Part shown: piece by piece, positions 2 through 16,388 of the stretch
Layout: the number at the start of each line of letters is the position of its first letter
Numbering within the stretch: position 1 is the stretch's first letter
From: an uncultured virus (IMG/VR IMGVR_UViG_3300049828_000286)
Lineage: Duplodnaviria; Heunggongvirae; Uroviricota; Caudoviricetes
DNA: 20,000 bases
Strand: one strand, 5' to 3'
IMG/VR virus record: IMGVR_UViG_3300049828_000286
Notes under the pieces: generated by a model
Databases searched by the model: none
Told to the model about the DNA's origin: nothing
The model's input: the letters and a program-made list of their open reading frames with translations, nothing else
Made by a program: the position numbers and the translations under genes

Positions 2-343
2 GCTGCCATTGTGTCCAGGCCGGCTAAACCACTCATGGTTCTCCATGCCCACGATGTAATCCTGTGGACTTGGAATGAAGCGGTTTGCAAAGTCCTCCAG
101 GACATGCTGCTCACCGATCAGCTTGACCGGTACAGTCTTGCCATCACTGTTCGTGATCGTCGTGCCGAACACGCGCTCCAGGATGACGCCGATGAACCAG
201 CTGTTGTGTGTAAGGACACGATGGCGATTGTCAGAGATGGCAATCTTGCTGCTGTCCATCAGGTCATGGATGGGCAAGTAGTCCTCAGCCTTGCCGCCAT
301 ACCGCCTGGCCGAACTCACCGCATGATGATAGGGCTTAGACAC
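2..343 (-). CDS. DUF6915-like conserved phage protein (runs off the left edge)
   Basis: Own translation: (M)SKPYHHAVSSARRYGGKAEDYLPIHDLMDSSK...DNRHRVLTHNSWF...ERVFGTTITNSDGKTVPVKLIGEQHVLEDF...FIPS. Matches the recalled DUF6915 pattern. Absent from the ORF track because it lacks a stop in the window. Confidence 0.75.
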   Translation of the reverse strand, partial: MSKPYHHAVSSARRYGGKAEDYLPIHDLMDSSKIAISDNRHRVLTHNSWFIGVILERVFGTTITNSDGKTVPVKLIGEQHVLEDFANRFIPSPQDYIVGMENHEWFSRPGHNGS

Positions 344-740
344 GTGGCAGCTCATTGACCACACTGACCTCGTACTGAGTGGCAAAGACCTTGTCGTAAA
401 TGCGGTCCCGTACCTCGTCTGGCAGGCTCATAATCAGGTCGCCGACATCCGTGTCTTGCCCTGCGATGATGCCAGCTGCCACCTTCTCCTTCTCGGTCAG
501 CTCTGTAATGACACATTTCCTCATGTCCTGGTCGTGGCCCCATCCACCCTGGACGGTGTCGAACCAGACTGACAGATCGTCATCGCCCATCTCGTCGTAG
601 AAATCCCGCGTCTGCTCCGTGACCCACTTTTTAGCTTCTTCCAGTGAGCCTGTCACGAACGCGGGAGACATCCCGTCAGAGCTGCTGTACGTTTCGTCGT
701 TGTACTCCCAGCTGGACTGTCCCACCACGTACTGCTTCAT
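336..740 (-). CDS. acidic hypothetical phage protein
   Basis: 134 aa ORF; ATGA overlap with upstream gene; internal KVAAGII motif. Confidence 0.7.
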   Translation of the reverse strand: MKQYVVGQSSWEYNDETYSSSDGMSPAFVTGSLEEAKKWVTEQTRDFYDEMGDDDLSVWFDTVQGGWGHDQDMRKCVITELTEKEKVAAGIIAGQDTDVGDLIMSLPDEVRDRIYDKVFATQYEVSVVNELPRV

Positions 741-1042
741 ACCTGGTCGGCCTCGATGTGCTGGTAGTACGCTTCGAGAACAGCAGTACGAAGGGCCGTG
801 TTGGCCTGTGGATTCCCCTGGTCGATGGGTACGAGGTACACGTACTTCTGGTCCTCGCCATCCTTGTCCTTGTAGCGGCGGTCAGGGAAGTCTACGAATG
901 GCTCCTTGCCGTCGATCTTGGACTTCCAGATGCTGATACCGCGAAGCTTGAGGCCATCCAGTGTGCCCTTCTCGAACCAGATTTCCGCCTCGGCAAGCTT
1001 GCTCTCTGGACGGCGAGTGTTCTTAATGATACGGATACGCAT
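737..1042 (-). CDS. SpoVG-like nucleic-acid-binding protein (paralog 1)
   Basis: KLAEAEIWF...GLKLRGISIWKS...FVDFPDRRYKDKDGE...YVYLVPI...LRTAVLEAY follows the SpoVG pattern; AGGAG RBS. Confidence 0.75.
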   Translation of the reverse strand: MRIRIIKNTRRPESKLAEAEIWFEKGTLDGLKLRGISIWKSKIDGKEPFVDFPDRRYKDKDGEDQKYVYLVPIDQGNPQANTALRTAVLEAYYQHIEADQV

Positions 1043-1071
1043 AGATACTCCTGTTTTGTGTGTGACTTGGG

Positions 1072-1227
1072 TTAAAACAACTGGCCCGCGATGAGCCGAC
1101 TCGTCTTGATTTTCAGCAGAATGCGCTGAAGCAGGCTCAGCCCGTGCAGTCGCTCTTCTTTGAGGGACTTGGCAATCGCATCTCTCATCGTGACGCGTGT
1201 GCTCTTGCCATCAGAATAGAACATCAT
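1072..1227 (-). CDS. small hypothetical protein ending RLIAGQLF
   Basis: Start overlaps stop of the 1224-1337 ORF. Confidence 0.55.
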   Translation of the reverse strand: MMFYSDGKSTRVTMRDAIAKSLKEERLHGLSLLQRILLKIKTSRLIAGQLF

Positions 1228-1337
1228 GCGTAGTACTCTATGATCGCCATGGTCCATTCACGTGACTCTTTCTGGTACTCCAGGTCATCCGTGATTCGCT
1301 GGATAACCTCAAGGATGCTCTCGATGGTGGCATCCAT
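1224..1337 (-). CDS. 37 aa peptide MDATIESILEVIQRITDDLEYQKESREWTMAIIEYYA
   Basis: Own translation; fills the gap exactly; N-terminus resembles that of the 1339-1755 ORF. Confidence 0.5.
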   Translation of the reverse strand: MDATIESILEVIQRITDDLEYQKESREWTMAIIEYYA

Positions 1338-1338
1338 C

Positions 1339-1755
1339 TCAGTCATGCTCGTATTCCTTTACTTCTGTTCGACCATCGGCGTACACAACAACCTTCGCGT
1401 GATCGCCAAAGGTCTCATGGAAGAAGTCTTCATCGAATCCATCGAGAAACGCACTCAGCTTGCTCTCGAGTAGCTCGTGGCCACCGTATCCAAGTTCCTC
1501 GTCGATGCCACGTTCATCGTCCTCTCCGTCAAACCGTGCGAATGGATAGGACGTGTTTACGCCAAACTCGCACGGATCTCCGTCGTTGAAGTAGGGCGTG
1601 TATTGTGTCCATCCGAAGTACAGCAGCGTCGGAAACTCCTCGAAGATTTTCTTCGCTGTCTCAGTAAACATGCTCTCCATGAGAGTGTTCTTTTCTGCCG
1701 ACAAATCGGAGATCTTCTGAATGATCTCGAGGATCCTCTTGTTCGTATCGTTCAT
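1339..1755 (-). CDS. conserved phage hypothetical protein (WTQYTPYFNDGDPCEFGV motif)
   Basis: Motif recalled from phage hypothetical proteins; GGAG RBS. Confidence 0.75.
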   Translation of the reverse strand: MNDTNKRILEIIQKISDLSAEKNTLMESMFTETAKKIFEEFPTLLYFGWTQYTPYFNDGDPCEFGVNTSYPFARFDGEDDERGIDEELGYGGHELLESKLSAFLDGFDEDFFHETFGDHAKVVVYADGRTEVKEYEHD

Positions 1756-1924
1756 GATTGCTCCAGGACGAGAACGGGCATTCCCTGATGCCTTAGGTGT
1801 TCAATGATGCGTCGAGCTGACGTGTCACACGCACGCACACAGTAGTGTCCAAGCCAGTGTGCGTCCAGTGGATCAAATGGCCAGTGCCGACAGTAGATGA
1901 ACCAGGTCCGGTCACGCTTCCAGG

Positions 1925-2212
1925 CTACGGCACCGTGGCAGTGTCGATGTCCTCCATGAACGCATTCAGGAAGCCGACGATCTCGCGGAACTGTTGCGCA
2001 CTGAGCTGTGATGCCGACCCGGCGATCCTGATGTCCACTTGATCGAGGTCCCATGACAGGCCATACGAAACGCTCAGTAGCCATTTGCGATTTCTCTCAT
2101 TCGCGATGTCAAACCGGAGACGACTACTACTCGTGTCTTTCTGGATGCACAGGGACATTCCATGACTGATGCCCGTCGAGACTATCGCCTTATCGCTGTT
2201 CTTCGTGTTCAT
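1925..2212 (-). CDS. hypothetical protein
   Basis: ORF in gene train; start assigned to MNTKNS. Confidence 0.6.
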   Translation of the reverse strand: MNTKNSDKAIVSTGISHGMSLCIQKDTSSSRLRFDIANERNRKWLLSVSYGLSWDLDQVDIRIAGSASQLSAQQFREIVGFLNAFMEDIDTATVP

Positions 2213-2360
2213 CCTTGACACGCCTCTTATGTTTAGACCGTCTACCGTCCCTGTCCTTCTCTGTCCGATGTGGCCGTGTGGGCTTTGGCACTGGTACGCG
2301 CGGCAGCCAGCGCTTCTTCTTATCCTTCGTAGGTTCTTGTTTATATTCTGCGGATCTCAT
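2190..2360 (-). CDS. small basic protein (PKPTRPHR...RSKHK)
   Basis: Lys/Arg-rich 56 aa ORF overlapping both neighbours. Confidence 0.5.
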   Translation of the reverse strand: MRSAEYKQEPTKDKKKRWLPRVPVPKPTRPHRTEKDRDGRRSKHKRRVKDEHEEQR

Positions 2361-2583
2361 CAGCGGTAAGCAACATGCGATAGTCATTTCGGTCAATGGC
2401 CCACTTGTACATTTGTGTAAGGGTCATCCAGTGATCATCACTCATGTGGTACCCGTGATAGTGGCCCGTAACACGAATCACGTAGCCACTGGATAGCCTG
2501 GCGTACTTATAGGGCTCCTCTCCAGAGAGTTTGGCCGCAATGAGCAGCTTGTCAATCTTACCCAGTTGCTCGGCTACGGCCAT
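2341..2583 (-). CDS. hypothetical protein with N-terminal AVAEQLGK / LLIAAKLSG
   Basis: AAGGAG upstream of ATG at 2583. Confidence 0.6.
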   Translation of the reverse strand: MAVAEQLGKIDKLLIAAKLSGEEPYKYARLSSGYVIRVTGHYHGYHMSDDHWMTLTQMYKWAIDRNDYRMLLTADEIRRI

Positions 2584-3034
2584 GTTGCCGTCTCTCCTTT
2601 GCGCGCTCTCGGAGACCTTCCTCACTATACTTAAGGCTCTTTTGCGCTATCCCTGCCCAGACAATCGTGCGTCCAGACCAATACCGCTTTGAGATGGTTC
2701 GATGCCTCAGTTCCATCCATAATCGGTACGCGTGCGAGACGTGATTGGCCATCTTCATGTTATTGACCAAGTTCATGGTCGCTTCCTGAAACGATGTACC
2801 ACATCCTACGCCGAGTTCAGTGAGTGAATAACCTGCACCGAAATTACCTTTCCTCAGCTGCGCTGTCATGGTAAATCGGGTGTAGGTCTTTCTGGAGCCA
2901 TCCCACTTAGGATAGTCGGCGTCAAGTCTGACGCACACCTCGGAGGGGATGTTCTCGAGATGCACGACCGTCACTTCCTTTGGCGTGAACATCTGCGATG
3001 CGCTTGAATTTTCCTTTTCTGATGTTGTTTCCAT
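2558..3034 (-). CDS. hypothetical protein (start uncertain)
   Basis: 158 aa ORF; long overlap with the upstream ORF suggests the true start may be MFTPKEV. Confidence 0.6.
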   Translation of the reverse strand: METTSEKENSSASQMFTPKEVTVVHLENIPSEVCVRLDADYPKWDGSRKTYTRFTMTAQLRKGNFGAGYSLTELGVGCGTSFQEATMNLVNNMKMANHVSHAYRLWMELRHRTISKRYWSGRTIVWAGIAQKSLKYSEEGLRERAKERRQHGRSRATG

Positions 3035-3323
3035 AGTTGAGCACGCCTTCTCTGATTTCTGTACGAGGCCGATAGCCGCAAAACGTGAGCCACGTCATCG
3101 CAGCTCTCGCTCTGTCATGTTTAGCCAATATTGCTAGCAGCCTGGACATGTCATCCTGCCACGTCACTAGACTCCATGTGACGATGGCCTCTAGTAGGCA
3201 TCCATCGACGGACACGTAGAGCTTTCTGACCGTGGAGCTGTCGTAGTAGTGAACCGTGAAGGCCCTTGCGCCTAAGAGCTTAGCCGCGACGATGTCCTTA
3301 TCGCTAAAGACCACTAAGGACAT
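2922..3323 (-). CDS. hypothetical protein with N-terminal DIVAAKLLG
   Basis: GAGG RBS; overlaps phosphoesterase stop. Confidence 0.6.
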   Translation of the reverse strand: MSLVVFSDKDIVAAKLLGARAFTVHYYDSSTVRKLYVSVDGCLLEAIVTWSLVTWQDDMSRLLAILAKHDRARAAMTWLTFCGYRPRTEIREGVLNYGNNIRKGKFKRIADVHAKGSDGRASREHPLRGVRQT

Positions 3324-3900
3324 CGGCTACCTCGTCATAGTGAACTGGCCGGAAGTCCCAGACATCCACGCCGACATTGAGCATGCGGCCATTCGTCTTC
3401 CAGGCCTCGTGAACATGGCCATGAATGAGCAGCCCACCGCTGTCCACTGGCCTGTACGGCGAGAGCTTCTCTTCTCGGCCATCGACGTGATCGCCGTGGT
3501 ATGGCAGATGACACAGCCGTACAGCTTCCGTCTTGCCATGGAGGTGAAAGAGCAGCGTATCCGTCTCGTGAATGCTCTTGAAGTACTTCAGGTACTCCTG
3601 CTCCCAATGCTCTCGCATACCTGGACGCTTGTGGTGATAACAGCGATGCGTCCTGTCGTGGTTGCCGTCGATGAGATACTTCTGGCCGTTCAGCCTGTCC
3701 ATGATAGGCAGGCTTTTGGCAATCTCACCCATGGCCACGTCGCCAAGGACCGTTACGAAGTCATTGGGCCGCACGACCGCGTTCCAGTTGTCCACGATGG
3801 CCTCTGTCATGTGGTCAAGGTCTGTGAATGGCCGTTTGGATAGCTCGATGATGCGGGCATGGCCTAGGTGAAGGTCGGCCGTGAACCAGGAATTGCTCAT
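3304..3900 (-). CDS. calcineurin-like metallophosphoesterase
   Basis: Metal-binding motifs present: DLHLGH, LGDV, GNHD, LCH, HGHVH, plus NVGVD; ATGA overlap at 3897-3900. Confidence 0.92.
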   Translation of the reverse strand: MSNSWFTADLHLGHARIIELSKRPFTDLDHMTEAIVDNWNAVVRPNDFVTVLGDVAMGEIAKSLPIMDRLNGQKYLIDGNHDRTHRCYHHKRPGMREHWEQEYLKYFKSIHETDTLLFHLHGKTEAVRLCHLPYHGDHVDGREEKLSPYRPVDSGGLLIHGHVHEAWKTNGRMLNVGVDVWDFRPVHYDEVADVLSGL

Positions 3901-4217
3901 TGGATTTCTACCAGCTCCCATCGTGGTCCTGGCTTCTTGACCCCAGCAACGACTTCATCGAACGTGTACCCTGAAATGCGCCTAACCATGAAGCCGGTTT
4001 TATTCCCACTCACAATTTCTTGGGCTCCAGTCGCAGCCACATCAGCCAGTATGTCTGCGGTCACCTTTTCAGCAGTCAAGTTCTCGATCTTGCGAGCGTG
4101 CTTCGCCTGCAGAGCAAGGACTTTTGCTGAGGCAACATCAGGCGCGACGACCCAGCACCCACAGTGCGCCTTGTTGTGAACTCGAAAGATATCCATGCCA
4201 GAGGATCCCGTGCTCAT
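3897..4217 (-). CDS. hypothetical protein
   Basis: Coupled by ATGA overlaps on both sides. Confidence 0.65.
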   Translation of the reverse strand: MSTGSSGMDIFRVHNKAHCGCWVVAPDVASAKVLALQAKHARKIENLTAEKVTADILADVAATGAQEIVSGNKTGFMVRRISGYTFDEVVAGVKKPGPRWELVEIQ

Positions 4218-4633
4218 TGGATTTCTCCTACTGGGTTGTCCGGGAACGTCGCATGGCGAATAAGCGTGTATGCCATAGCAAACTCACACTCATACTTCCG
4301 CCATCGATCCGGATCTAAGCCAAGATCTCCGGCTGTCTCGTCTCGATAGATGCCTTGCTGCGCGAATCGCATTCGCTCGATACATGCAGCCATCATCTCC
4401 AACCTTGCGTTCTCTGGCCTGTGCCGTGGCTGGATACTCCCGACCATGAAATCAGGGCCGTATATCCAGTCCCGCTCGCCAAAGTAGAAATAAGCCCTCC
4501 AGCACGGAGTGAAGACTTGTGATCTGGTACACAGAGACAGCCTCACGAGCTTTACCTCGCACCCATAGAGCAGTGCTCCAGCCATACCATGACGGGCGAT
4601 CTGTTCGTGTGACGCTGTATGAAGGTCTAGCAT
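4214..4633 (-). CDS. hypothetical protein
   Basis: 139 aa ORF in gene train. Confidence 0.65.
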   Translation of the reverse strand: MLDLHTASHEQIARHGMAGALLYGCEVKLVRLSLCTRSQVFTPCWRAYFYFGERDWIYGPDFMVGSIQPRHRPENARLEMMAACIERMRFAQQGIYRDETAGDLGLDPDRWRKYECEFAMAYTLIRHATFPDNPVGEIQ

Positions 4634-4652
4634 ACCATGGAGCTTAATGCGA

Positions 4653-5342
4653 CTATGATGTTTTTGGGCCGTACATGAGCCAGAACAGTGTGCTCAACGC
4701 GCTATTGATGGAGGCCGTCTTTGCCTTGATGTCAATGCCCCCACTGTGAAGCGTGCATGTTACGTTGTTGTAGTCAGTGGTGAAGTTGAAATCAAACGTC
4801 CCTCCACGAGCGACACTCATCGCGAGCTGGTCAGGTGTTTTCTCGACGTTCTGTCGGTTCACCCTCATGCCATATAATCGGGCCGAGGCATTTTGTCCCA
4901 GAGCCGATGGAACGAGGGCACACAGCGCGTCCATTTGTTGGCGAATGTTTCGCTGCGCACTGCTGTCCTTGTCGCGTGCTGATAGCAGCGTTTGCCACAA
5001 ATCACGGCTACTGGTGATGAATTCCTGCATCCGCTTGACCTGTGTCGCTGTCTTGTAGTGCCTGAACACCTCGATGCTCCTGTGGCCATCTTCCCCAGAT
5101 ATTCGATAGTTATGCGGGATGTACGTATGCAACGGGGCCTGGAGGTTCGATAGCGCTACCTTGAGATGACGGCCTTCTCGTCGCTGAACCTGATACACAG
5201 GCTGATCCTCGACTGGCCTGTCAGGGAAAGCTGTGGGATCGCGATACTCCGAGTACTCCCACGATGACACACCGACATCAGGCGCAGGGAGTTCGGTCCA
5301 TCCGAGCGCCTGTACCAACATGGCAAGCTGTGCTTGTGTCAT
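4653..5342 (-). CDS. hypothetical protein
   Basis: 229 aa ORF; GGAG RBS. Confidence 0.7.
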   Translation of the reverse strand: MTQAQLAMLVQALGWTELPAPDVGVSSWEYSEYRDPTAFPDRPVEDQPVYQVQRREGRHLKVALSNLQAPLHTYIPHNYRISGEDGHRSIEVFRHYKTATQVKRMQEFITSSRDLWQTLLSARDKDSSAQRNIRQQMDALCALVPSALGQNASARLYGMRVNRQNVEKTPDQLAMSVARGGTFDFNFTTDYNNVTCTLHSGGIDIKAKTASINSALSTLFWLMYGPKTS

Positions 5343-5410
5343 GACATCTCCAATCCAAGCGGCCTCTGTACCAGCCGATCATTGTCCACGAGTTGTATGC
5401 ATTGGCCTCG

Positions 5411-5671
5411 TCAGCCGTTCTCCTCGCGGTTAATGGCCAAGACCGTTATGGCCATGCGAACATCCTGGTCTTTCACAGCAAGAGCCCTAAGCATGCTGGC
5501 CGTGAATTGCAAGCGACGATTATAGCCAGTTAACCATCCCTCGCGTCGACCCTTCAGCACACACCAGCTGCGTTTTATTGGCCGTCTACACAACACACCA
5601 GCTGGCCTATAGACGTAAGGCTTAGCCTGCTGTAGTCTGGCCGCCACTACCAGTCGCTCGAATGTCGTCAT
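5411..5671 (-). CDS. basic hypothetical protein with N-terminal RLVVAARL
   Basis: ATGA overlap; flanked by a 29-bp direct repeat. Confidence 0.6.
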   Translation of the reverse strand: MTTFERLVVAARLQQAKPYVYRPAGVLCRRPIKRSWCVLKGRREGWLTGYNRRLQFTASMLRALAVKDQDVRMAITVLAINREENG

Positions 5672-5859
5672 AGCCCTAATGGCCTCTGTACCAGTTGATC
5701 ATTGTTCACACTCCTGAGAACGAACGACTGCTTGATCCCGAGGTCAGGCTGGTCCTTGACGATACGTTCTGCTGAGGGCCTGTCACCACAGCAGGCCACG
5801 AATCGGCCATCGCTGTCTGTGATAACAAACATGACATCATTAGCCCTGATGCGTGTCAC
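5668..5859 (-). CDS. small hypothetical protein
   Basis: GTGA/ATGA overlaps on both sides. Confidence 0.6.
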   Translation of the reverse strand: MTRIRANDVMFVITDSDGRFVACCGDRPSAERIVKDQPDLGIKQSFVLRSVNNDQLVQRPLGL

Positions 5860-6290
5860 GCAACCAGTTTTCGTCGCATGTGGAACTCACCTTGCCATGG
5901 CTCCCACCTAGCTCGCATCCTGGCCAGTGTGGCCAACGGGACATGGTGCAGGTTGCTGACGTACAGCTCGTAGTCCGTCATGCCCCCATCGAACAGGCTG
6001 ATGACCTTGACCGGGATGCCCATGCTCCATGCCATCTCGAGGTACGGCTTCATCTCCTGAACCGTCGTGAACGTGTTGGCTACCACGACATTCTGGCCTT
6101 CCTTGAGGGCATCCTCTGTCTCTCGCTGGCATTGCTGATGACAAAAGGCCAACTTGGCAGGGTCGAACAGATAGCGACCCTGGCCATCATGCATGTACAT
6201 GTCAGCCTCGATATGGAAGCTGCCAGTAAACAGGTTGACCGCCGTGTACGACTTGCCAGCACCTGGCAAGCCTCGCAGTAGGACCAGCAT
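5856..6290 (-). CDS. P-loop kinase, AAA_33 / polynucleotide-kinase-like
   Basis: LVLLRGLPGAGKS Walker A, IEADMY, VVVANTFT, NLHHVP...MRARWE; typical of the phage AAA_33 family. Confidence 0.88.
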   Translation of the reverse strand: MLVLLRGLPGAGKSYTAVNLFTGSFHIEADMYMHDGQGRYLFDPAKLAFCHQQCQRETEDALKEGQNVVVANTFTTVQEMKPYLEMAWSMGIPVKVISLFDGGMTDYELYVSNLHHVPLATLARMRARWEPWQGEFHMRRKLVA

Positions 6291-6304
6291 ATTAGAACGC
6301 CAGG

Positions 6305-6739
6305 TCACTTCTTTACCTTCCTTTTTAGGTGACTCTTCCAACGTCGCATGTGGACCATGGCAGCTGCGACCAGTTCAAGGTTGTTGGGCTCGTCAGACAC
6401 TGCCCGCATAGCATCAGAGAACCTGTCGCGCTGGTACTTTTCCTTGTCCCACTCCTTATGTAGCTTCTGGATGAGTGTCTGAGCCTGATGTTCCTCTTCT
6501 AGGGTAAGGTCCGAATAACCCTTTGCCTCTGAGACGTGTCGATTCAGGATGGGCAGTACAAGATCACGAGCCTTTCCGGTCAGCTCATCGTTAATATTGC
6601 CAGTTGCCACCATGTCCCTGAACTCTTCCCCGATGCTAGAGGCATAGACGGCGGGTATTGCTTCATCGAAGAAGCGAAAACGCTGCTCTAATGTCAGGCA
6701 CCCCAGCCGAAATCTAAACAGGCTGATATCGTCTGACAC
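6305..6739 (-). CDS. helical hypothetical protein with C-terminal ELVAAAM
   Basis: 144 aa ORF starting immediately after the upstream stop. Confidence 0.65.
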   Translation of the reverse strand: MSDDISLFRFRLGCLTLEQRFRFFDEAIPAVYASSIGEEFRDMVATGNINDELTGKARDLVLPILNRHVSEAKGYSDLTLEEEHQAQTLIQKLHKEWDKEKYQRDRFSDAMRAVSDEPNNLELVAAAMVHMRRWKSHLKRKVKK

Positions 6740-6913
6740 CTAGGCGACCTTCCGGTTGAGACGGCTGAAAGCCTTCCGCTGCTGGCGGGTCGCCTTCTTG
6801 CCGTTGAGGCCGAAGTGGGCCTGAATGGCCGCGTGTCGTTCCAGGCACTTCTTGCCCCAGGACGATCCGTTCATGCCGGGGAACTCGCTCTTCTTGATGC
6901 TGCGAACGCTCAT
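6740..6913 (-). CDS. small basic hypothetical protein
   Basis: AGGAG RBS before MSVRSIKK. Confidence 0.65.
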   Translation of the reverse strand: MSVRSIKKSEFPGMNGSSWGKKCLERHAAIQAHFGLNGKKATRQQRKAFSRLNRKVA

Positions 6914-6953
6914 AGTGGTATTACTCCTGTATTGTGTGTATTTCTCGTGAACA

Positions 6954-6975
6954 TCAGATCGGCACACTGTGCCGG
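6954..6975. repeat. palindromic element copy 1 (GGCACA-C-TGTGCC)
   Basis: TCAGATCGGCACACTGTGCCGG directly after the stop of 6976-7353. Confidence 0.75.
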
Positions 6976-7353
6976 TTAGTAGAGGTATCCGTGATACTCC
7001 TCGTCAGCGATGGTATGACCGTTATCCCTGGCCCACTGCTTTGCCGCAGAGATGCCAGCATCCTTGTAGGCATTGTTCCACTCTGCGCCGTCCGAGGAAA
7101 TCAACGCACGGTCGTTCTGGTAGCTGCCACTGGTTACCTCGATGTCAACTAACTCGCCGACTGTAGCCGCCATGGCATCCAGCTTAGCCCTCACATCAGC
7201 AGGTATACCGGTATCGACCCAAGCACCCTCACGACCCTTACGGCCTGGTGTTTTGTTGTCAGTGATCCACGCGTAGTGGCCCTCATTGACCAGGGACACG
7301 ATCTCATCACCCTGGCCACGTAGCACAACCATGTGTAGCTTCATTCTGCGCAT
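6976..7353 (-). CDS. hypothetical protein
   Basis: 125 aa ORF in gene train. Confidence 0.7.
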   Translation of the reverse strand: MRRMKLHMVVLRGQGDEIVSLVNEGHYAWITDNKTPGRKGREGAWVDTGIPADVRAKLDAMAATVGELVDIEVTSGSYQNDRALISSDGAEWNNAYKDAGISAAKQWARDNGHTIADEEYHGYLY

Positions 7354-7356
7354 CTC

Positions 7357-7647
7357 CTAGACGGGCTTCTTCAGCTTGACGCCGGCCTTGTTGAGCGCGT
7401 GACCAACAGCTTTCCGCTGGGCCGGATTCAACTTCACGAACAGCCGCTTCACAGCGACCAATCGTCCAACAGCCTTGTCTGGATTGTCCCCAGCACTCAG
7501 CTCAGACATGCCAGACACAAACAGGTCAGGGCGGTCCACTGGGTACATCTTGACAGTGGTCGTCACTGGGACCTCGACGCCATTGCGATTGCCGTACTCG
7601 TACACGAAGGACAGTCCGTATGTTCCAGTTTCCAATTCGATCTTCAT
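7357..7647 (-). CDS. conserved phage hypothetical protein (G..ELSAGD..DKAVGR..A..R pattern)
   Basis: AAGGAG RBS; pattern recalled from phage proteins. Confidence 0.7.
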   Translation of the reverse strand: MKIELETGTYGLSFVYEYGNRNGVEVPVTTTVKMYPVDRPDLFVSGMSELSAGDNPDKAVGRLVAVKRLFVKLNPAQRKAVGHALNKAGVKLKKPV

Positions 7648-7662
7648 GGTTGACTCCTTGAG

Positions 7663-7687
7663 ATGTCAGACTGGCACAGTGTGCCGG
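7663..7687. repeat. palindromic element copy 2 (GGCACA-G-TGTGCC)
   Basis: ATGTCAGACTGGCACAGTGTGCCGG, identical to 15048-15072. Confidence 0.8.
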
Positions 7688-7688
7688 T

Positions 7689-7754
7689 TTACGACAGCTT
7701 GACCACGTCTACTGGCATCTCTGCCAGCTTCTCGATCAGCTCCTTGACCGTCAT
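7689..7754 (-). pseudogene. 21-codon remnant MTVKELIEKLAEMPVDVVKLS
   Basis: GGAGG RBS; N-terminus typical of longer phage MTVKELIEKL proteins, but stops 1 nt before the palindromic element. Confidence 0.5.
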
Positions 7755-8011
7755 TAGTCCTCCGTCAGGCCGGTCGCTATCTCGTGCGGAAAACCGATCC
7801 GCATGTAGTCCCTATAGTTCGCGAGTTCAGGGCGGCCATGTGCAACCACGAAACCGACCCAGATGGACTGCCAGACTTCCTCGTCCCACGCCGTCCCATC
7901 GTACTCGTCTGGATTGGCCTCAGCGATGGCGCAGTCGGCCGCTGCTCGGTCGCATATGTCGACCTTCCAGAGCTGCTCAATCTCCTTGTCAGTCATAGCC
8001 TCCGTCCTCAT
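7754..8011 (-). CDS. hypothetical protein ending EIATGLTED
   Basis: Coupled ORF. Confidence 0.65.
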   Translation of the reverse strand: MRTEAMTDKEIEQLWKVDICDRAAADCAIAEANPDEYDGTAWDEEVWQSIWVGFVVAHGRPELANYRDYMRIGFPHEIATGLTED

Positions 8012-8385
8012 CCCATGAGTCCCTTTGCGATCTTGTACTTTGCCACGATGTTCAGCGGGTCAGCGACGACCTGGTTACCTGGGTACTCAATCAGCGACTG
8101 CATCGTCTCGCCATGCTGGAGAATACTATCCAGGGCATCACCACGGTACTTGTTCGTGGCGACGGCCAGGTGTGGCCGCACAATCAGTTCACCTACCACG
8201 AACGTATGGGTGAGCTGGCCGCCAAACAGCATATCACTGCTGGTAGATGCGCCAGCGATTGCTACGCCCTTCTCGCGATGGTTTAAGACGACCATCCAGG
8301 CCGGCACTCTGACCGCCGCGTGGCCATAGAGCATCTTGTGCATGGGACCGCCGTACAGCTCGTCCATCAGGTCCTCTTTGGTCAC
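8008..8385 (-). CDS. hypothetical protein ending KIAKGLMG
   Basis: Coupled ORF. Confidence 0.65.
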   Translation of the reverse strand: MTKEDLMDELYGGPMHKMLYGHAAVRVPAWMVVLNHREKGVAIAGASTSSDMLFGGQLTHTFVVGELIVRPHLAVATNKYRGDALDSILQHGETMQSLIEYPGNQVVADPLNIVAKYKIAKGLMG

Positions 8386-8672
8386 CGGCCTGCTCCGAAT
8401 GCCTCAGCAATCAGCCACCGATCAAGCTTGGCAAGGATCCACTTCTGAAGGCGCTTGCCATTTCTGCCTGGAAGGATAGTTGGCTTTTCCTTTGTGCCGT
8501 ATGTCCAGTAGTTTGGGAGCCTAATACTCGTGTTGCCGTCTCCGTCTTGCACGATGGAGATACCAGGCAGCGACATGTCAATCATGGGCCCTTCATGGAA
8601 GTGCAGCGTGGCAGTAATAGGCGCACCGTGGTAGTTTCTCGTTCTGCTGAACGATACAGTGAGGCTAGGTAT
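8382..8672 (-). CDS. divergent SpoVG-like protein (paralog 3; start uncertain, possibly ATA)
   Basis: ATLHFHEGPMIDMSLPGISIVQ...SIRLP...LQKWIL aligns with AEIWFEKGTLDGLKLRGISIWK (737) and AELHFSAGLLTGSKLVGFAVYR (8665). Confidence 0.55.
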   Translation of the reverse strand: MPSLTVSFSRTRNYHGAPITATLHFHEGPMIDMSLPGISIVQDGDGNTSIRLPNYWTYGTKEKPTILPGRNGKRLQKWILAKLDRWLIAEAFGAGR

Positions 8673-8988
8673 TTCCTGGTCCAGTAAGACCTTCTGCGAT
8701 GAGCCACGCCTTGTACTGCCAGATGATGCAGTCACGGATGCGCTCCATGGATTCGCCGTCATCGCCAGGACGAAGCAGCGCAAACGACCTACGCTCCCCC
8801 ATGACTGAGTACGTCCGAGCAGGAAAGGTCACTGACAGTTCGCCATTTTGACGCCGGTAGACGGCAAAGCCTACCAGCTTCGAACCTGTCAGGAGGCCAG
8901 CGCTAAAGTGCAGCTCTGCGTCGGCCAGTTTCACAGATGACGAACTGCTACCAGTATCATCAGATCGTATGAACTTAACGGCTGTCAT
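8665..8988 (-). CDS. SpoVG-like protein (paralog 2)
   Basis: KLADAELHF...KLVGFAVYRR...VTFPARTYSVMGERRSFALLRP...IRDCII. Confidence 0.75.
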   Translation of the reverse strand: MTAVKFIRSDDTGSSSSSVKLADAELHFSAGLLTGSKLVGFAVYRRQNGELSVTFPARTYSVMGERRSFALLRPGDDGESMERIRDCIIWQYKAWLIAEGLTGPGNT

Positions 8989-9160
8989 CGCTGTACTCTT
9001 GCCAGCAATTCACCCACTCATCGTCAGTGGGGTCGAGGATCAGGCTGTCGGCGCTGTACTTCACGAACTCGCGTTCGCCAGAGTGTACCGACTCCAGGAT
9101 CACGCCCTCTCCTTCATCACTCACGACCACGTACTGTCGGTTCTTGAAGACGGCTTTCAT
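8975..9160 (-). CDS. small hypothetical protein (LILDPTDDEW)
   Basis: GGAG RBS; coupled. Confidence 0.65.
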   Translation of the reverse strand: MKAVFKNRQYVVVSDEGEGVILESVHSGEREFVKYSADSLILDPTDDEWVNCWQEYSDDSR

Positions 9161-9321
9161 CCATCCACTCCCGCCTCGAGATCATCCAGGCGATCTGCCA
9201 ATTGCTGAATCACTTCGACCAGCGTGGCATAGAGAACATCTTGATCCATCTCACGACGCCAGCTGTCTATCAGCATTTGCATCGACTTAATGGCATCGTC
9301 ATCAGGTTCAGTGTCTGACAT
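9157..9321 (-). CDS. 54 aa acidic helical protein MSDTEPDDDAIKSMQ...
   Basis: Own translation; AAGGAG RBS; ATGA overlap with next gene. Confidence 0.6.
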   Translation of the reverse strand: MSDTEPDDDAIKSMQMLIDSWRREMDQDVLYATLVEVIQQLADRLDDLEAGVDG

Positions 9322-9330
9322 CAACGCTCC

Positions 9331-9594
9331 TTAACAGTAGGGACCGTGTGGCTTGAGTGCCATCTTTTCAGGGTGCTCAGCGTCCAGGACATCCTGTAGC
9401 AACCTGGCCCGGTAGACAAACCTGGCTCTGTCATTCTGGCCATCTTCCAGCAGGTCACTCTCGAGAATCTTGAGGGCCTGGAGCGGTTGATGTGCCAACG
9501 TGATCAGATTGTCCTCGTGCTGCAGCTTGTTCGCCTGGTATTCCTTGTCAGGAATGGCCAGGTACTGCGCGGACACAACGGCCAGTTCGCTCAT
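9331..9594 (-). CDS. hypothetical protein
   Basis: Start MSELAVV overlaps upstream stop. Confidence 0.65.
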   Translation of the reverse strand: MSELAVVSAQYLAIPDKEYQANKLQHEDNLITLAHQPLQALKILESDLLEDGQNDRARFVYRARLLQDVLDAEHPEKMALKPHGPYC

Positions 9595-9908
9595 GATATC
9601 GCCACTCCAAATGGCACTTCTTCCACGCGGTACTCTGTTTCGCCGTAATGGTAACTCACGCCAGTATCGTAGGGATTGGCGGCGACATACTTGTCTACGG
9701 CCATCCAGTCTGGGTCGTCGTCGTCTGGCTTGTTGTCCATGTACTCCTGACACTTGTCTCGATAGGCCATGGCCGGTTCGTGTGCGCCGAATGCCATTAC
9801 GACCCATTCCGTCTTATCTGAGTAGTTGCCTTGCTTACCGATGACTACATAGATCTTGCCAACGATAGACGCTGCGACAAGCTCCTTTGCCATGATGTCA
9901 GCGGTCAT
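9591..9908 (-). CDS. hypothetical protein, tandem paralog A1
   Basis: Similar along its length to 9905-10222. Confidence 0.75.
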   Translation of the reverse strand: MTADIMAKELVAASIVGKIYVVIGKQGNYSDKTEWVVMAFGAHEPAMAYRDKCQEYMDNKPDDDDPDWMAVDKYVAANPYDTGVSYHYGETEYRVEEVPFGVAIS

Positions 9909-10222
9909 ATGTCTTTTGCCAGGATAACCTCTTCGACCCAGAACAAATTGGCCGTTTCGCCAGGGTCATGCGGATTCTGCTGAAGGTACTTCATTCTGGC
10001 TAATATGCCGCTACCCGTATGATCGTCGCCTCTCACTGGACACGCTGACGCGTATGTCTGTGCCGCGACAGCCATGCGTTCAGCATCGTCCTTGTTGGCA
10101 AATGCCACGATTGGGCGCTCGTTGTTATATTCGTGAGGACTTTCCTCGCAGGCCCTGACCACATACATCTTGCCAAGGATGGCCATAGCCACGAGCGACT
10201 TCGACAGCTCGTTATCAGCCAC
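9905..10222 (-). CDS. hypothetical protein, tandem paralog A2
   Basis: LVA..I.GK.YVV, AF, Y...NP.D.G, VEEV shared with 9591-9908. Confidence 0.75.
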   Translation of the reverse strand: MADNELSKSLVAMAILGKMYVVRACEESPHEYNNERPIVAFANKDDAERMAVAAQTYASACPVRGDDHTGSGILARMKYLQQNPHDPGETANLFWVEEVILAKDI

Positions 10223-10526
10223 AGCGCACGTTGTACTTGGTCCGCAGATCGTTCGCGATCTTCGTCGCTTCTGCCCTCAGTGCCGCAGCGATAGCCTGCT
10301 GGATACCAGGCGTCTCCTCAGCACGAATGCTATTGGTGCTGAAATTGCTTGGCCTTCCAACGGCCTCCAAGTATGGCATATTGGCCACAGTCAGGAAGTC
10401 CTTGCGCCGCTTGAGCAGTGCATTGATGTCCGCGATGTCCTTCTCTGTTAGTTCTTTCAACCCAGCAGCCGCACACTTTGTCGGAGTACAGAGCTGGCCC
10501 CAACTTCCACACTGGCAGATCCACAT
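10215..10526 (-). CDS. hypothetical protein with N-terminal Cys cluster (WICQCG...C...C)
   Basis: AGGAG RBS. Confidence 0.65.
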   Translation of the reverse strand: MWICQCGSWGQLCTPTKCAAAGLKELTEKDIADINALLKRRKDFLTVANMPYLEAVGRPSNFSTNSIRAEETPGIQQAIAAALRAEATKIANDLRTKYNVRCG

Positions 10527-10535
10527 CGTGTTCTC

Positions 10536-11006
10536 CTAGCCGAAGATCAGTTCGCCAAAGATGGCCATCTGCAGGATGCAGTCATAGCCGTTGGCATCGA
10601 TGTCCCACTCGCCTTCACCGATGTACGAGTACTCTGAAAGTTGGCCGTTCTTGGTCACAAGGGTAGCCAGGCCAGCTGCGAAGTGTTCCTGCGTGACCTC
10701 GACGACAGGAGCCCTCATGGGGTCCATGCCATTGAAGCCCTTCCATCCAACAACCGGAAGCTTCAACTTGGCAGCTGATTCCTGCTGTGCTATTGGCAAT
10801 CCAGGGTCGTTGTCGTCACTGAAGCCCTGAATGCTGTACTCGCCTTCCTCGTCTGTGACGGCCACGAGGATAGCTAGTACATGGCCTCTATCGTCTCGCT
10901 TGGTACCGACCCGAGCGAACCAGCTATAGCTGGCATCCGTCGATCCGTCCAGATGGATCGCGATGTCATCAAACGGCACCGTGATAGGGACGAGATGCTT
11001 GGTCAT
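10536..11006 (-). CDS. conserved phage protein (C-terminal DIDA...D.ILQ.AIFGELIFG)
   Basis: C-terminal signature recalled from phage/MGE proteins; AAGGA RBS before MTKHLV. Confidence 0.75.
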   Translation of the reverse strand: MTKHLVPITVPFDDIAIHLDGSTDASYSWFARVGTKRDDRGHVLAILVAVTDEEGEYSIQGFSDDNDPGLPIAQQESAAKLKLPVVGWKGFNGMDPMRAPVVEVTQEHFAAGLATLVTKNGQLSEYSYIGEGEWDIDANGYDCILQMAIFGELIFG

Positions 11007-11152
11007 CAGATATCCTTTACCGTGAACGTGCCAGCCGCCATCCCTGACATCAGTCGGACCAGGCCGAGCATCTGCCAGTGATTGAGGTCTGTCGTGACGA
11101 GTAGCGTGCGTACTTCTCCACTGGCCTGTACCCACGTGATTTCGTATGTCAT
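11006..11152 (-). CDS. 48 aa protein MTYEITWVQASGEVRT...
   Basis: Own translation; TGATG overlap with next gene. Confidence 0.55.
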   Translation of the reverse strand: MTYEITWVQASGEVRTLLVTTDLNHWQMLGLVRLMSGMAAGTFTVKDI

Positions 11153-11174
11153 CGTACCATTGCTTTCTGTGTAC

Positions 11175-11405
11175 CTATCGACACAGTGCGGCGGCGATTA
11201 GCTCGGCCTCTGTCACAATGTCCAGGCGTTCGTTGTCCGTGAGAGGCGACAGGCTAGCGGCGATACTGTCAGCCGTGGCTTTGTCCATCAGCCTCGCTCG
11301 GTAGTCGCCATAAATGTCGCCGTTATCGCCATAGTATATGTAGCAACCGGCCAATGCCCTTCTACGCAACCTGTCCATGTACGACAACCTGACCGCGTAT
11401 CTCAC
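11175..11405 (-). CDS. hypothetical protein, tandem paralog B1 (ends EAELIAAALCR)
   Basis: Similar layout to 11402-11614 and 11611-11853. Confidence 0.65.
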   Translation of the reverse strand: MRYAVRLSYMDRLRRRALAGCYIYYGDNGDIYGDYRARLMDKATADSIAASLSPLTDNERLDIVTEAELIAAALCR

Positions 11406-11614
11406 TTGGCCAACTGTTCTGCGATGAACTCACGTTCGCTAAGCACTCTCACTCTGTATTGGCAGCGCCAGTACTCAGCACACAGGTTCGCTTGATCAAG
11501 TGGCATGTAGTTTGGTTCATATGTCATTTGCCACCAACTGCCAACCCAGTGCCTTCCGTACCAGACTGGACGAATCATCCCGTCTGATACCCTTATCTCA
11601 ACTAGCCATCTCAT
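11402..11614 (-). CDS. hypothetical protein, tandem paralog B2 (ends LSEREFIAEQLAK)
   Basis: 3' 30 nt nearly identical to those of 11611-11853. Confidence 0.7.
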   Translation of the reverse strand: MRWLVEIRVSDGMIRPVWYGRHWVGSWWQMTYEPNYMPLDQANLCAEYWRCQYRVRVLSEREFIAEQLAK

Positions 11615-11853
11615 TTGGCCAACTGTTCTGCGATGAACTCCTTCTCGCTGAGGATGCTGACATGACTGTTCGGCTTGGTTTGCCAGTAGGACTCGACCTT
11701 CCAGGCAGAATCAAGGTCCATGAACCAGGCCTTGTCGTCATACCAGCAAAACGATGTACCAGGCTTGATGTAGCCGTAGTACACCCTGATGGTCTTGCGT
11801 GCTGATCTGATGTCATACAGACCAGACTCGATCTGGACCACGTACCGGCTCAT
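11611..11853 (-). CDS. hypothetical protein, tandem paralog B3 (ends LSEKEFIAEQLAK)
   Basis: Coupled ORF with paralogous C-terminus. Confidence 0.7.
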   Translation of the reverse strand: MSRYVVQIESGLYDIRSARKTIRVYYGYIKPGTSFCWYDDKAWFMDLDSAWKVESYWQTKPNSHVSILSEKEFIAEQLAK

Positions 11854-12374
11854 GACAGGTTATGCCCCTTGACCAGTTTATCGATCTCGAGCTGGGCCTC
11901 ATCGTGCTCCTGCTCGGTGATCTTCTTACTCAGGAACAAGACGAGCAGCTTGATGCGGGCCTTGAGGATATCCTTCCTTGCCCACTTATCCTCGAGTTCC
12001 TGATCGTACTGTTCTCGACCACGCCATACGACCTCGGTTATTGGCACACCGTTGTCTTTGGCGAACTGTCGCATCTGCTCAGTCTTACCTTGACTGGCTG
12101 GACATTCCGGCGCGGGCTGGTCAGGCTCAGGCTTGAAGTCATGACGAGACATCATAGCTGTAAGGTCGTCGCGGAAGTGCTGAACTTTGGCCACACTGAC
12201 AGCCGCGAGCTCGTTAATCAAGGACTTGAGCTCACATTTGATGTGGTGTTTGCCTGACTGCATGTAGCAACTTGGACAGCATTTATGGCCGTTGCCATTC
12301 CTGCCAGACCATTCCAGCCGCGACAGCATCTCGTGACATCTGGACAGGAGATCATCGGTGTACGTCAGGCTCAT
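11850..12374 (-). CDS. hypothetical protein with CPSC...H..C putative zinc site
   Basis: LEWSG...CCPSC...HHIKC; AAGGAG RBS. Confidence 0.7.
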   Translation of the reverse strand: MSLTYTDDLLSRCHEMLSRLEWSGRNGNGHKCCPSCYMQSGKHHIKCELKSLINELAAVSVAKVQHFRDDLTAMMSRHDFKPEPDQPAPECPASQGKTEQMRQFAKDNGVPITEVVWRGREQYDQELEDKWARKDILKARIKLLVLFLSKKITEQEHDEAQLEIDKLVKGHNLS

Positions 12375-12586
12375 TGCCACTCCTTTGCCAGTTCAGCGAA
12401 CATCGCTGGCAACTTGGCATCCTCGTAGAACGGGCACATTGGGCCGGTTGCATCGAAGCACAGTTTGTCTGCGATCAGCGGGTCGACGTCGAACAAGGTG
12501 TTCACGTAGGCCTGGCCTGGGCGTTGACCCTTGGCCATCTTGTCGCCCGACTCTCGGTGCAGTCTTTGCCACTTGTCGGCTACCAC
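12371..12586 (-). CDS. conserved phage hypothetical protein (QRPGQAYVN.L...PFY.D)
   Basis: Recalled phage motif; GTG start after AAGGA. Confidence 0.65.
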   Translation of the reverse strand: MVADKWQRLHRESGDKMAKGQRPGQAYVNTLFDVDPLIADKLCFDATGPMCPFYEDAKLPAMFAELAKEWQ

Positions 12587-12771
12587 AGCCTGTCCTTTCC
12601 TGCGAAGAACCGCACGGACAGCGCGATCATTAGAATCCAGCTGCCTAGAAGCAGCGCGATCAGCCCTGCCAGGAGCTGGCCACGTTCCATCGCATCCACC
12701 GCCAGCACGACCACGCCATACAGAATGCACATGCATCCTGAGTATGTCAAGCCGTAAAATATTGGCCTCAT
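12580..12771 (-). CDS. small membrane protein, two predicted TM helices
   Basis: Two long hydrophobic stretches. Confidence 0.65.
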   Translation of the reverse strand: MRPIFYGLTYSGCMCILYGVVVLAVDAMERGQLLAGLIALLLGSWILMIALSVRFFAGKDRLW

Positions 12772-13082
12772 GACAGCTCTTCGACGTCGAACGTGACAGG
12801 CAACAGCGACCTGATCTGGTCAAAGTTCGGAGTGCTGTTGTTCATCTGCCGGTCGAACAGAGTGATCAGATCCGCCGCCTTCTGTGGCAGCTGGACCTCG
12901 ACAGTGTGGCCGTTCTCATTTCGCCATGCTTTGGCAAAGCCCACGCTGTGCGCTTTGCCAGTGTTGGCGTTGAGCGCAACGGCCAAGAGGCACGTGTTGC
13001 ATACGGAATGCCTGTCGTAGCCAGCGATGGCGGCGTCCAGGTGTTTACTGGTGACGGTGATAGTGGTCGTGTGTTCGTCCAT
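12768..13082 (-). CDS. hypothetical protein (C..C.LA.AL)
   Basis: Start MDEHTT downstream of a sigma70-like promoter. Confidence 0.7.
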   Translation of the reverse strand: MDEHTTTITVTSKHLDAAIAGYDRHSVCNTCLLAVALNANTGKAHSVGFAKAWRNENGHTVEVQLPQKAADLITLFDRQMNNSTPNFDQIRSLLPVTFDVEELS

Positions 13083-13101
13083 ATCGGTCTCTCTGTTGCC
13101 C

Positions 13102-13130
13102 ATCATGCACATGTTTCCTGTGCCTGTCAA
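13102..13130 (-). promoter_or_regulatory. sigma70-like promoter TTGACA-17-CATGAT
   Basis: Perfect -35, 17-bp spacer, intergenic. Confidence 0.65.
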
Positions 13131-13136
13131 GGGCAG

Positions 13137-13430
13137 TTATTGGGTGATTTCCAGAAGCAACTCGCCCACGCCGCCCCTGGCCCAGTCGCTTCTGGACCCG
13201 TCAGGCTGGACGAGCACGACAACCGGCTGCACACCATGGCCGTCGTAGAAGGAGGCACTCTTGGAGATGGCGAATCGCCGGCCAGGAAAGGCACGCAGGC
13301 CGAACTCTCCGGGAAAGTTGGCAATGGCGGCTCTGACTTCGCTGTACTGGCCAGTGCCCTCACACTCCGTGCAGACACCTTGGCCACGATGGCCACCTTC
13401 TCCGTTACAGGCAGGGCAAGTAGGAATCAC
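13137..13430 (-). CDS. protein with DnaJ-type CxxCxGxG zinc-finger repeats
   Basis: CPACNGEG and CTECEGTG. Confidence 0.7.
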   Translation of the reverse strand: MIPTCPACNGEGGHRGQGVCTECEGTGQYSEVRAAIANFPGEFGLRAFPGRRFAISKSASFYDGHGVQPVVVLVQPDGSRSDWARGGVGELLLEITQ

Positions 13431-13618
13431 TGCTGTGCCACCAATCGGCCGTTCAGGAAGCCCCAGGTTCGGCCAGTTTTGACCAACTGACTCGCGACCA
13501 GTTCACCCACTGGCGTCTTGAGCACCGGCACCATGACCACCTTGTGCAGGCGGTTGTCCAGGTTGGCCTCGACGTTGTTGTACTGAATCCACTGGCGGCG
13601 AGTTGCAATGCGCTTCAT
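13427..13618 (-). CDS. small hypothetical protein
   Basis: AAGGAG RBS; internal ELVASQLVK. Confidence 0.65.
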   Translation of the reverse strand: MKRIATRRQWIQYNNVEANLDNRLHKVVMVPVLKTPVGELVASQLVKTGRTWGFLNGRLVAQQ

Positions 13619-15047: not shown

Positions 15048-15072
15048 ATGTCAGACTGGCACAGTGTGCCGG
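15048..15072. repeat. palindromic element copy 3 (GGCACA-G-TGTGCC)
   Basis: Directly after the TAG of 15073-15246; 25 bp identical to copy 2. Confidence 0.8.
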
Positions 15073-15273: not shown

Positions 15274-15327
15274 GCAACTCCATAAGGCACATAAACGGCG
15301 TGGCCGGTTATATGCCCTAGCAATCGC
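15274..15327 (-). other. long intergenic RNA hairpin (possible RNase III processing site)
   Basis: TAGGGCATATAACCGG/CCGTTTATGTGCCTTA gives 15 of 16 pairs with G-U on the minus strand, extended by an outer stem. Confidence 0.55.
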
Positions 15328-15746
15328 TACAGCCCGACTGCGACCATCACCGAGTTGATGGTTTCCAGCGACTCCTTCAAGCCGCAGTCTGTGAAGTCTC
15401 GAACCGCCTTGATGGCTTCGATCTTGTTGCCCTTGACCAGGCTGGCATGAATGGCCGAGGCTTCGAACTCACTGAACGGGGAGCAGCACCACCTGCTCTG
15501 ACTGTTCAGGGCCTTCCTGACGGCCTCTGTCGTGAGCAGTGGCTTGCTGGCAGTGGCCAGCTTGTCCCGTAGCAGCTTGCAGTTGATCTTGCGATCCGCC
15601 GCCGTGTTGACCAGTGCGGTCATCAAGGAGCTGCCGTTGTTCTGGTAGTCCAGGATGAACTCGTTGGACTGGTTCTGCTCGTACGCCAGCAGCTGCTCCA
15701 ACAGCTCACGCTGTGGGCAAGTGATGGTGATGGTGATGTCCTTCAT
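15327..15746 (-). CDS. protein with C-terminal ribosomal L7/L12-CTD-like domain
   Basis: GNKIEAIKAVRDFTDCGLKESLETI resembles the L7/L12 KIxVIKxVRxxTGLGLKEAK motif; AAAGG RBS before MKDITI. Confidence 0.7.
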   Translation of the reverse strand: MKDITITITCPQRELLEQLLAYEQNQSNEFILDYQNNGSSLMTALVNTAADRKINCKLLRDKLATASKPLLTTEAVRKALNSQSRWCCSPFSEFEASAIHASLVKGNKIEAIKAVRDFTDCGLKESLETINSVMVAVGL

Positions 15747-15832: not shown

Positions 15833-16345
15833 GGGGGTGCCGCAATGGGCCTCTCTCTGCCTACTGGGCTTGGAACCAGTAGTGCCCATTCCAGAGTGGC
15901 CAGCTAGCCTCTCAGTCGCTAGCCAGCCATTCTGTCCTCTGTGTTACTGAGAGAGGTCTCTTCCTAGCAGGCACCTTAGCTGCTAGAGTCGTGCCTTTTA
16001 CCGTCTGCGGCTGGTAAGCCTACCCGTGATTACTCAGCTGCTCATAACAGCTTTGCGGCCGATGTGGCCTATCCGGGGTCATGGCCAAGTGTCAGATTGG
16101 GTCAGCTGTATCAAGCTGGCCGTCTACCAGGGCTCGCCCTTTGGTCGGGTTACTGCGGTACGGTCGGACCTTAGACTTCCACGGTTATGTCTAACCGAGT
16201 CACTCAGGTCCTTGCTAACGAAACGGCGCTTATAGGGAGTCGCTATAAGGCCAGTTTCTGTACTGTGGCTCGGAATGGCTAGGCCCATTCCTCAAGCGCC
16301 ACAATATAGGGGGCAGTCGATAGCAGTTACACTACCCCCCACTCA
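15833..16345. ncRNA. candidate large structured non-coding RNA
   Basis: No credible ORF; 10 or more consecutive or nested stems. Confidence 0.45.
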
Positions 16346-16388
16346 GCAGTTAGGCACACTTCCCCCCTCCGATTTTTCCCCATGCCCC

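Follow-up and report, generated by a model that had tools for sequence, protein, structure and literature searches.

A recurrent short tag, predicted to be helical and possibly a docking element, on small proteins of an uncultured Caudoviricetes phage

Three described classes of portable terminal tags come closest to the element considered here, and the sections of the cited accounts on which we draw characterize them as follows. The capsid-targeting sequence (CTS) of phage T4 is an N-terminal propeptide of 10–19 residues, removed by gp21 and carried by the basic proteins IPI-III (PMC9026906, PMC3012670). Bacterial microcompartment (BMC) encapsulation peptides are amphipathic helices of 15–20 residues that a linker joins to enzymes encoded in BMC loci (PMC4594438). 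The ClpX C-motif-1 and ssrA degrons need a free C-terminal Ala-Ala (PMC9775585). We have analysed a stretch of 20,000 nt (the window) from an uncultured Caudoviricetes virus (IMG/VR IMGVR_UViG_3300049828_000286), in which a short peptide pattern, hereafter the tag, recurs in small proteins. An earlier examination of the bare sequence (the sequence-only reading) had described the tag in 16 genes, regarded about 15 of the carriers as unrelated and proposed a docking or targeting signal. The proteins of the 76,440-nt contig, of which the window forms one end, are singletons; between 336 and 15746 the window has 50 small, tightly packed minus-strand genes (curated set, 4,933 aa), which we name by their left coordinates.

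The strict pattern is [LIFV][IV]AxxΦ, with positions numbered −1, 0, +1 for the Ala and +4 for Φ. All 17 peptides quoted by the sequence-only reading were found in the named open reading frames (ORFs), and 13 of the 17 fit the pattern as stated; the four that do not (genes 336, 7754 and, C-terminally, 8008, and the first of two peptides in 2341) lack the leading hydrophobic residue. The window contains 17 strict matches in 17 of 50 genes, against 2.1 ± 1.4 expected from 5,000 within-protein shuffles, none of which attains 17. Among 2,189 small control proteins from other phage loci there are 96 strict matches versus 113 expected (observed/expected ratio 0.85), and the ratio is higher in the window than in any other of the 92 loci. 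In the comparison on which the sequence-only reading had staked itself beforehand, that of protein ends with the background of other phage proteins, an excess was found: a strict match lies within 25 residues of an end in 14/50 window proteins and in 42/2,189 controls. Control genes were predicted by our own gene caller, which recovered 45 of the 50 curated window genes; loci below 5 kb (among 117 sequences called, including the window) and proteins above 230 aa were excluded.

Only the coding frame shows the excess: it has 17 strict matches versus 2.2 expected, compared with 7 versus 7.1 in the other five frames together. Third codon positions of the tag vary like the general codon use of the window. 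Therefore it is the peptide, not the DNA, that recurs, as the sequence-only reading had supposed. In five paralog pairs the tags are identical at 4–7 of 7 positions, while the remainder of the proteins is 22–44% identical; synonymous codon differences within the tag were observed in four of these pairs, the exception being 11402/11611, which had been singled out beforehand.

The tag had also been described as lying mostly at protein ends. A bias of this kind is present (12 of 17 strict matches terminal versus 7.3 expected, p 0.016), but it becomes moderate once paralogs are collapsed (7/13 versus 3.9, p 0.054, at a threshold of 15 residues; thresholds of 12 and 20 give p 0.025–0.12). With a looser core, also after collapse, 13 of 25 matches are terminal versus 7.1 expected (p 0.009). 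The stated absence of the tag right of position 13700 is not confirmed as a contrast: 0/7 genes there compare with 17/43 to the left (p 0.08). In 14 loci around homologs of gene 13941 we counted 14 strict matches versus 12.8 expected.

The best-supported case is gene 9591 (9591-9908), in which the tag core (residues 10–15; 9864..9881, minus strand) lies in an N-terminal helix before a DUF7336-like domain. The AlphaFold2 model places this helix at residues 2–16, directly before the strand at 18–26 (mean pLDDT 90.8). Its paralog 9905 (9905-10222; core at 10178..10195, minus strand) is 31% identical overall, and the two tags agree at 4 of 7 positions, three of the four through different codons. 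The pair was compared with 136 homologs shorter than 400 aa (two longer ones were excluded). At most 10 residues precede the first strand in 119 of the 136, as against 19 residues in each of genes 9591 and 9905; the strict pattern is found before the first strand in none of the 136 homologs and the looser core in one. The Pfam model of DUF7336 (PF24024) matches 7 of 92 alignment members (best E-value 0.0002), the query 9591 itself being without a match, and Atlas matches of 0.88 serve as leads only. A fold search with 9591 peaked at Z 4.8 and was not informative. A Kelch-like repeat protein (P0028) matching the tag and first strand of 9591 was set aside as a coincidence, as the model has a helix there.

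The second family with homologs consists of three SpoVG-like paralogs of Vicinamibacterales type in this one phage: genes 737 (737-1042), 8382 (8382-~8675) and 8665 (8665-8988). In gene 8665 the tag core (8686..8703, minus strand) stands past the last helix, and the strict pattern is seen in the tail of 0/80 host homologs and 0/37 parsed viral homologs. The diverged paralog 8382 (core at 8397..8414, minus strand) shares 5 of 7 tag residues with 8665, compared with 26% identity elsewhere, and 4 of the 5 are encoded by different codons. The sequence-only reading had placed the tag of these two proteins just beyond the apparent domain end; it does follow the last helix, with none of the 117 homologs alike. 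The third paralog, 737, lacks the tag. Across both the DUF7336-like and the SpoVG-like family, the comparison with homologs supports a lineage-specific extension. As for the host tail, 56 of the 80 host homologs stop 11 residues after the last helix and viral homologs relax the tail; this fixed-length Ala-rich host tail looks, by analogy, like a ClpX degron. The SpoVG label was given by the sequence-only reading and we take it over as an assumption: there were no matches to the SpoVG profile among 19 members in Pfam and none by profile in the Protein Data Bank (PDB), and Pfam, NCBIfam and PDB sequence searches neither confirm nor exclude the name. In the region 8382-8700 the diverged paralog 8382 has no ATG, GTG or TTG at its domain start, beside the stop of gene 8665; use of a rare start codon or of recoding is possible.

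A fuller consensus of the tag is Φ-[ST]-[DE]-x-[DE]-Φ-[IV]-A-x-x-L-x-[GK]. By the principles of helix capping we take the tag to be an N-capped helix of about three turns that is closed by Gly, the N-cap box and the Gly two residues after Φ each being frequent rather than constant; models predict a helical state. The full N-cap part is present in 336, 2922 and the 11611 family and in 0/2,189 controls, counted with an 11-residue pattern derived post hoc. The helix is hardly amphipathic, unlike in the earlier description: its hydrophobic moment is only 0.06–0.38, a value that speaks against binding to membranes. Around the fixed Ala, the aliphatic residues at −1, 0 and +4 suggest, on the sequence, close packing in a groove. 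The tag adjoins the domain without a linker and occurs at either end; in the 16 genes of the sequence-only reading it is within 12 residues of the C-terminus in eight, further inside in three and N-terminal in five.

Our favoured reading, a tentative one, is that the tag serves as a portable docking helix for a single partner, itself encoded by the phage. That the pattern is a selected shared element we consider probable but not certain. Enrichment, locking to the coding frame, an add-on position in two families and retention in paralogs are what was observed; binding, a single partner and the phage origin of that partner are what we infer. In the proposed mechanism this phage lineage would have attached a three-turn helix to small accessory proteins of several folds, at one end or the other. 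The narrow aliphatic ridge of the helix around the fixed Ala would fit a groove on one partner, so that diverse proteins would be gathered at one machine. The partner could be the prohead core, with loading of uncleaved cargo, to which we give about half of the weight of the docking reading, or an early hub. Since the tag is missing from homologs in other Acidobacteriota phages, a partner encoded by the phage would be the most likely. The docking or targeting signal proposed earlier is in this form the best single reading, without the T4 analogy attached to it, which fails. A bolder version, that an undescribed, uncleaved, end-independent helix addresses ~30 accessory proteins genome-wide, even host-derived ones, to one phage-built machine, we find doubtful.

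Several results weigh against docking and are told here together with the alternative, in our view rather unlikely, that the carriers share no function and that what was picked out post hoc is a small number of paralog families together with ordinary capped helices, rich in Ala and Leu, close to protein ends. Carriers are less unrelated than was thought, since 11175/11402/11611, 9591/9905 and 8382/8665 are paralog sets and 2341/5411, which 2922 may join, probably another. At least 9 of the 16 genes fall in these four sets. The figure of ~15 unrelated proteins is too high; the 16 genes make about 10 lineages, 6–7 of them with good flank support, and after collapse the strict pattern is found in 12/44 or 11/43 families. 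To correct for the post hoc choice of pattern, ~14 million four-position patterns were searched in the window and in the controls. Without collapse the pattern of the sequence-only reading comes out on top (score 9.76); in the collapsed whole-protein search the best window score, 8.1, ranks 2 of 48 (control maximum 8.56 among 47 loci). When only the terminal 25 residues are searched, the score of the window is 8.41 under a milder and 6.79 under the harshest collapse. Control sets of 50 non-homologous proteins were drawn 480 times: 3–4 sets attain 8.41 and 2 attain 7.85 at seven families, while for the harshest collapse 11, 27 and 49 attain 6.79 at no fewer than seven, six and five families. 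In 400 draws from the uncollapsed control pool, 8–14 and 21–79 attain the milder and harshest window scores, respectively (37 for 6.79 at six families or more). As proteins of different genomes are mixed in a draw, these counts should be conservative. In the proposed test of terminal 25-residue segments against controls, 2–49 of 480 control sets attain the score of the window, depending on the setting. With correction for post hoc choice, 0.4–10% of control sets match the window, and the window was itself chosen from very many; therefore the motif statistic alone is suggestive, not conclusive.

Other points on the same side are that the flanks of the strict set are not significantly alike (p 0.15), that AxxLxG is in 3 of the 34 genes right of position 5671 versus 1.0 expected (p 0.08), and that the carriers have no common charge or size class. 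Host SpoVG-like tails are Ala-rich helices, 11 of 80 of which fit the looser form about two residues further out; judging from these tails, the SpoVG-like tag may have arisen by remodelling of an ancestral tail. The search for relatives gave no phage that carries the tag: genes 11611 and 737 found none in viral scans, tblastn of 9591, 12371, 8008 and 6305 against 50,697 phage records gave nothing, and a search for relatives by protein with 9591, the 11611 family and 2922 returned this phage alone. Some strict matches look incidental (in a hydrophobic stretch of 12580, in the middle of 5856), and isolated N-terminal matches are present in other phages. Set against a shared-nothing explanation are the two families that gained the same pattern where 136 and 117 homologs are without it, the milder collapse, under which as few as 3 of 480 draws attain the score, and the 11-residue N-cap form, post hoc as it is, in three window families and in no control. 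The flanks of all 30 loose-core matches are more alike than those of random control matches (10/300 draws), and AxxLxG, relaxed by us to Ax2[LI]xG, is in 5 of the 34 genes versus 1.4 expected (p 0.011), two of the five being paralogs.

Three further explanations were weighed. That the tag is read by the host, for instance by a Clp-type unfoldase or adaptor, and sets the lifetime or location of early proteins is unlikely: the SpoVG-like tag does occupy the place of the host Ala-rich tail, which resembles C-terminal ClpX signals as these are presented in the part of the account drawn on (PMC9775585), yet none of the tags, several of which stand N-terminally or internally, ends in a free Ala-Ala, 0/37 homologs from other phages use the tag, and the tag profile reaches a best E-value of 1.1 in three host genomes. 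It is also improbable, we think, that the helix is structural or self-associating, with no dedicated reader, and that it shields a sheet face otherwise exposed in small alpha/beta domains, or bundles with other copies. This would suit the missing linker, the way the 9591 helix runs into strand 1 at pLDDT ~80 and the 11611 helix follows the last strand, the reported aggregation of encapsulation peptides, and a possible common fold of the 9591 and 11611 families (hhalign probability 13%, weak), in which the termini could be close. A packing helix, however, needs no single pattern across folds, and here the same pattern is on the unrelated SpoVG-like fold, with homologs that exist without it. Very improbable, finally, is a by-product at the DNA level, with junction segments copied between neighbours by recombination or shaped by overlapping ribosome-binding sites. 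The ends of 11402/11611 are 81% identical over 54 nt and the starts of 9591/9905 are 73% identical over 51 nt, a 29-nt repeat flanks gene 5411, and the tag tails of 8008, 8382 and 7754 contain Shine-Dalgarno (SD)-like words. The free third codon positions and the absence of an excess in the five other frames speak against it, and copying accounts for spread within families, not for retention across folds. DNA-level copying as the sole cause is largely refuted; it may still be how the tag spreads.

Apart from the two families with homologs, the carriers differ in strength (all coordinates are on the minus strand). The best-supported members are 2341, 2922, 336, 9591/9905, 13427, the 11611 family and the 8665 pair, the weaker ones 1072, 5411, 6305, 7754 and 8008. 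Gene 11611 (11611-11853) carries the core at 11620..11637; its AlphaFold2 model (mean pLDDT 68) has the C-terminal tag as helix 70–79 after the last strand, and its leave-family-out score exceeds those of all 600 sampled controls, a partly circular result. Its paralog 11402 (11402-11614; 11411..11428) has the seven tag codons DNA-identical, and 11175 (11175-11405; 11184..11201) is a more distant paralog. The N-terminal core of gene 2922 (2922-3323; 3276..3293) has an N-cap box and Gly at +6 and is among the top flank scores; no homolog was found outside this phage. Gene 2341 (2341-2583) has an N-terminal core at 2527..2544, with the top flank score for the loose core, and a second, looser copy at 2563-2580. 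Gene 5411 (5411-5671; N-terminal core at 5633..5650) is probably a 2341 paralog (BLASTP, 81 columns, 23% identity). The internal tag-like helix of gene 336 (336-740; 468..485) has the full N-cap box and fails the strict pattern at −1, and gene 13427 (13427-13618; 13484..13501), with its core 23 residues from the C-terminus, has moderate flank support. Weaker C-terminal candidates are in genes 8008 (8008-8385; 8017..8034), where the codons contain the SD-like word of the next gene and an Atlas search gave leads only, and 1072 (1072-1257; 1078..1095), with weak flank support; a weak candidate in 6305 (6305-6739; 6356..6373) is 21 residues from the C-terminus. The C-terminal candidate of 7754 (7754-8011; 7766..7783) fails the strict pattern, has the worst leave-out score and may be due to chance.

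The carriers lie in a co-oriented run of 43 small packed genes (336..13618, minus strand), probably early accessory genes as judged from gene size, content and position beside the contig end. Matches to known families are sparse in the window: DUF6915 at the left edge, a phosphoesterase, an AAA_33 protein and a weak L7/L12 C-terminal domain. The best 80 genome matches of gene 8665 are to Acidobacteriota in 75 cases, many of them Vicinamibacterales, at 50–68% identity; therefore the phage host is probably, on these matches, a member of the Vicinamibacteria. Near-unchanged DNA of the window is present in freshwater runs from three studies, and contigs from four runs span the stretch with zero substitutions listed.

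A number of side observations were made in the same DNA. In the regions 5339-5413 and 5668-5709, the frame of gene 5411 runs on for 24 codons past its TGA and there encodes nearly the same peptide as the C-terminus of gene 5668 (29-nt direct repeat, 90%); this could reflect readthrough, a nonsense change of recent date or the scar of an insertion. The 49 nt at 2324-2372 are common to a different 17-kb contig (run X1), with one mismatch. A 25-nt intergenic repeat with a palindromic core stands directly after stop codons at 6951-6975, 7663-7687 and 15048-15072; two copies are identical, and in the third the core is inverted. It recurs with other flanks in contigs of run X1, a search of viral contigs gave no matching stretches, and we regard it as a candidate operator or promoter. 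A 21-codon mini-ORF (~7690-7753) overlaps the gene 7754 stop and terminates at this repeat; presumably it resembles the truncated start of a common phage protein. In the protein at 15327-15746, close to the end presumed to be expressed first, the weak match to the ribosomal L7/L12 C-terminal domain is preceded by an N-terminal part unrelated to it, and 16000-19700 is a CAG-rich low-complexity region with strong strand bias and a 570-aa Ala/Gln-rich ORF. An Rfam search gave no matches, and promoter and terminator scans were at or below chance level.

Most small phage genes have no known function, and a shared handle, if true, would be a short portable tag that links a third of the genes in the region to one partner. 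On the bolder, doubtful version, lineage-specific address helices might be a general phage means of managing small orphan proteins. The clean gain of a helix before a widespread domain is an example of tag recruitment. If chance is the answer, the window is a calibration case, in which an eight-fold motif excess comes down to p ~0.004–0.1 after paralogy and pattern choice are accounted for.

In comparison with the three known systems, as far as the portions of the accounts drawn on describe them, the tag resembles the T4 CTS: each is a short peptide conserved among small phage proteins that otherwise diverge. The analogy drawn by the sequence-only reading breaks down on position, as the tag is at either end or inside and only 5/16 are N-terminal; on the cleavage residue, as the CTS is cut after a terminal Glu, whereas Glu stands two places after the Ile/Val at only 4/16 tag sites, all four C-terminal; and on cargo charge, as CTS cargo is basic and tag carriers span pI 4.2–11.4 (median 7.8 versus 6.6 for non-carriers, p 0.51). 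By these defining features, read from sequence, the tag is not a T4 capsid-targeting sequence. With the ClpX C-motif-1 and ssrA degrons it shares the character of a small aliphatic, Ala-containing terminal signal; unlike C-motif-1, 0/16 carriers end in a free Ala-Ala and several tags are N-terminal, and on its residues we judge that it is not a ClpX C-motif-1 degron. A profile of the tag had a best E-value of 0.54 against PDB sequences, none of the BMC shell families was found among the 52 window ORFs scanned, and the literature searched, mostly without subscription papers and supplements, held no account of a phage tag like this or of SpoVG in Acidobacteria phages. Like BMC encapsulation peptides, the tag is a helical extension on either terminus that is absent from other homologs (in two families here), and both were found through the same homolog comparison. 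It differs from them in being shorter, sequence-patterned, of low hydrophobic moment (0.06–0.38), linkerless and viral. The tag would belong, on the favoured reading, with the known portable terminal tags.

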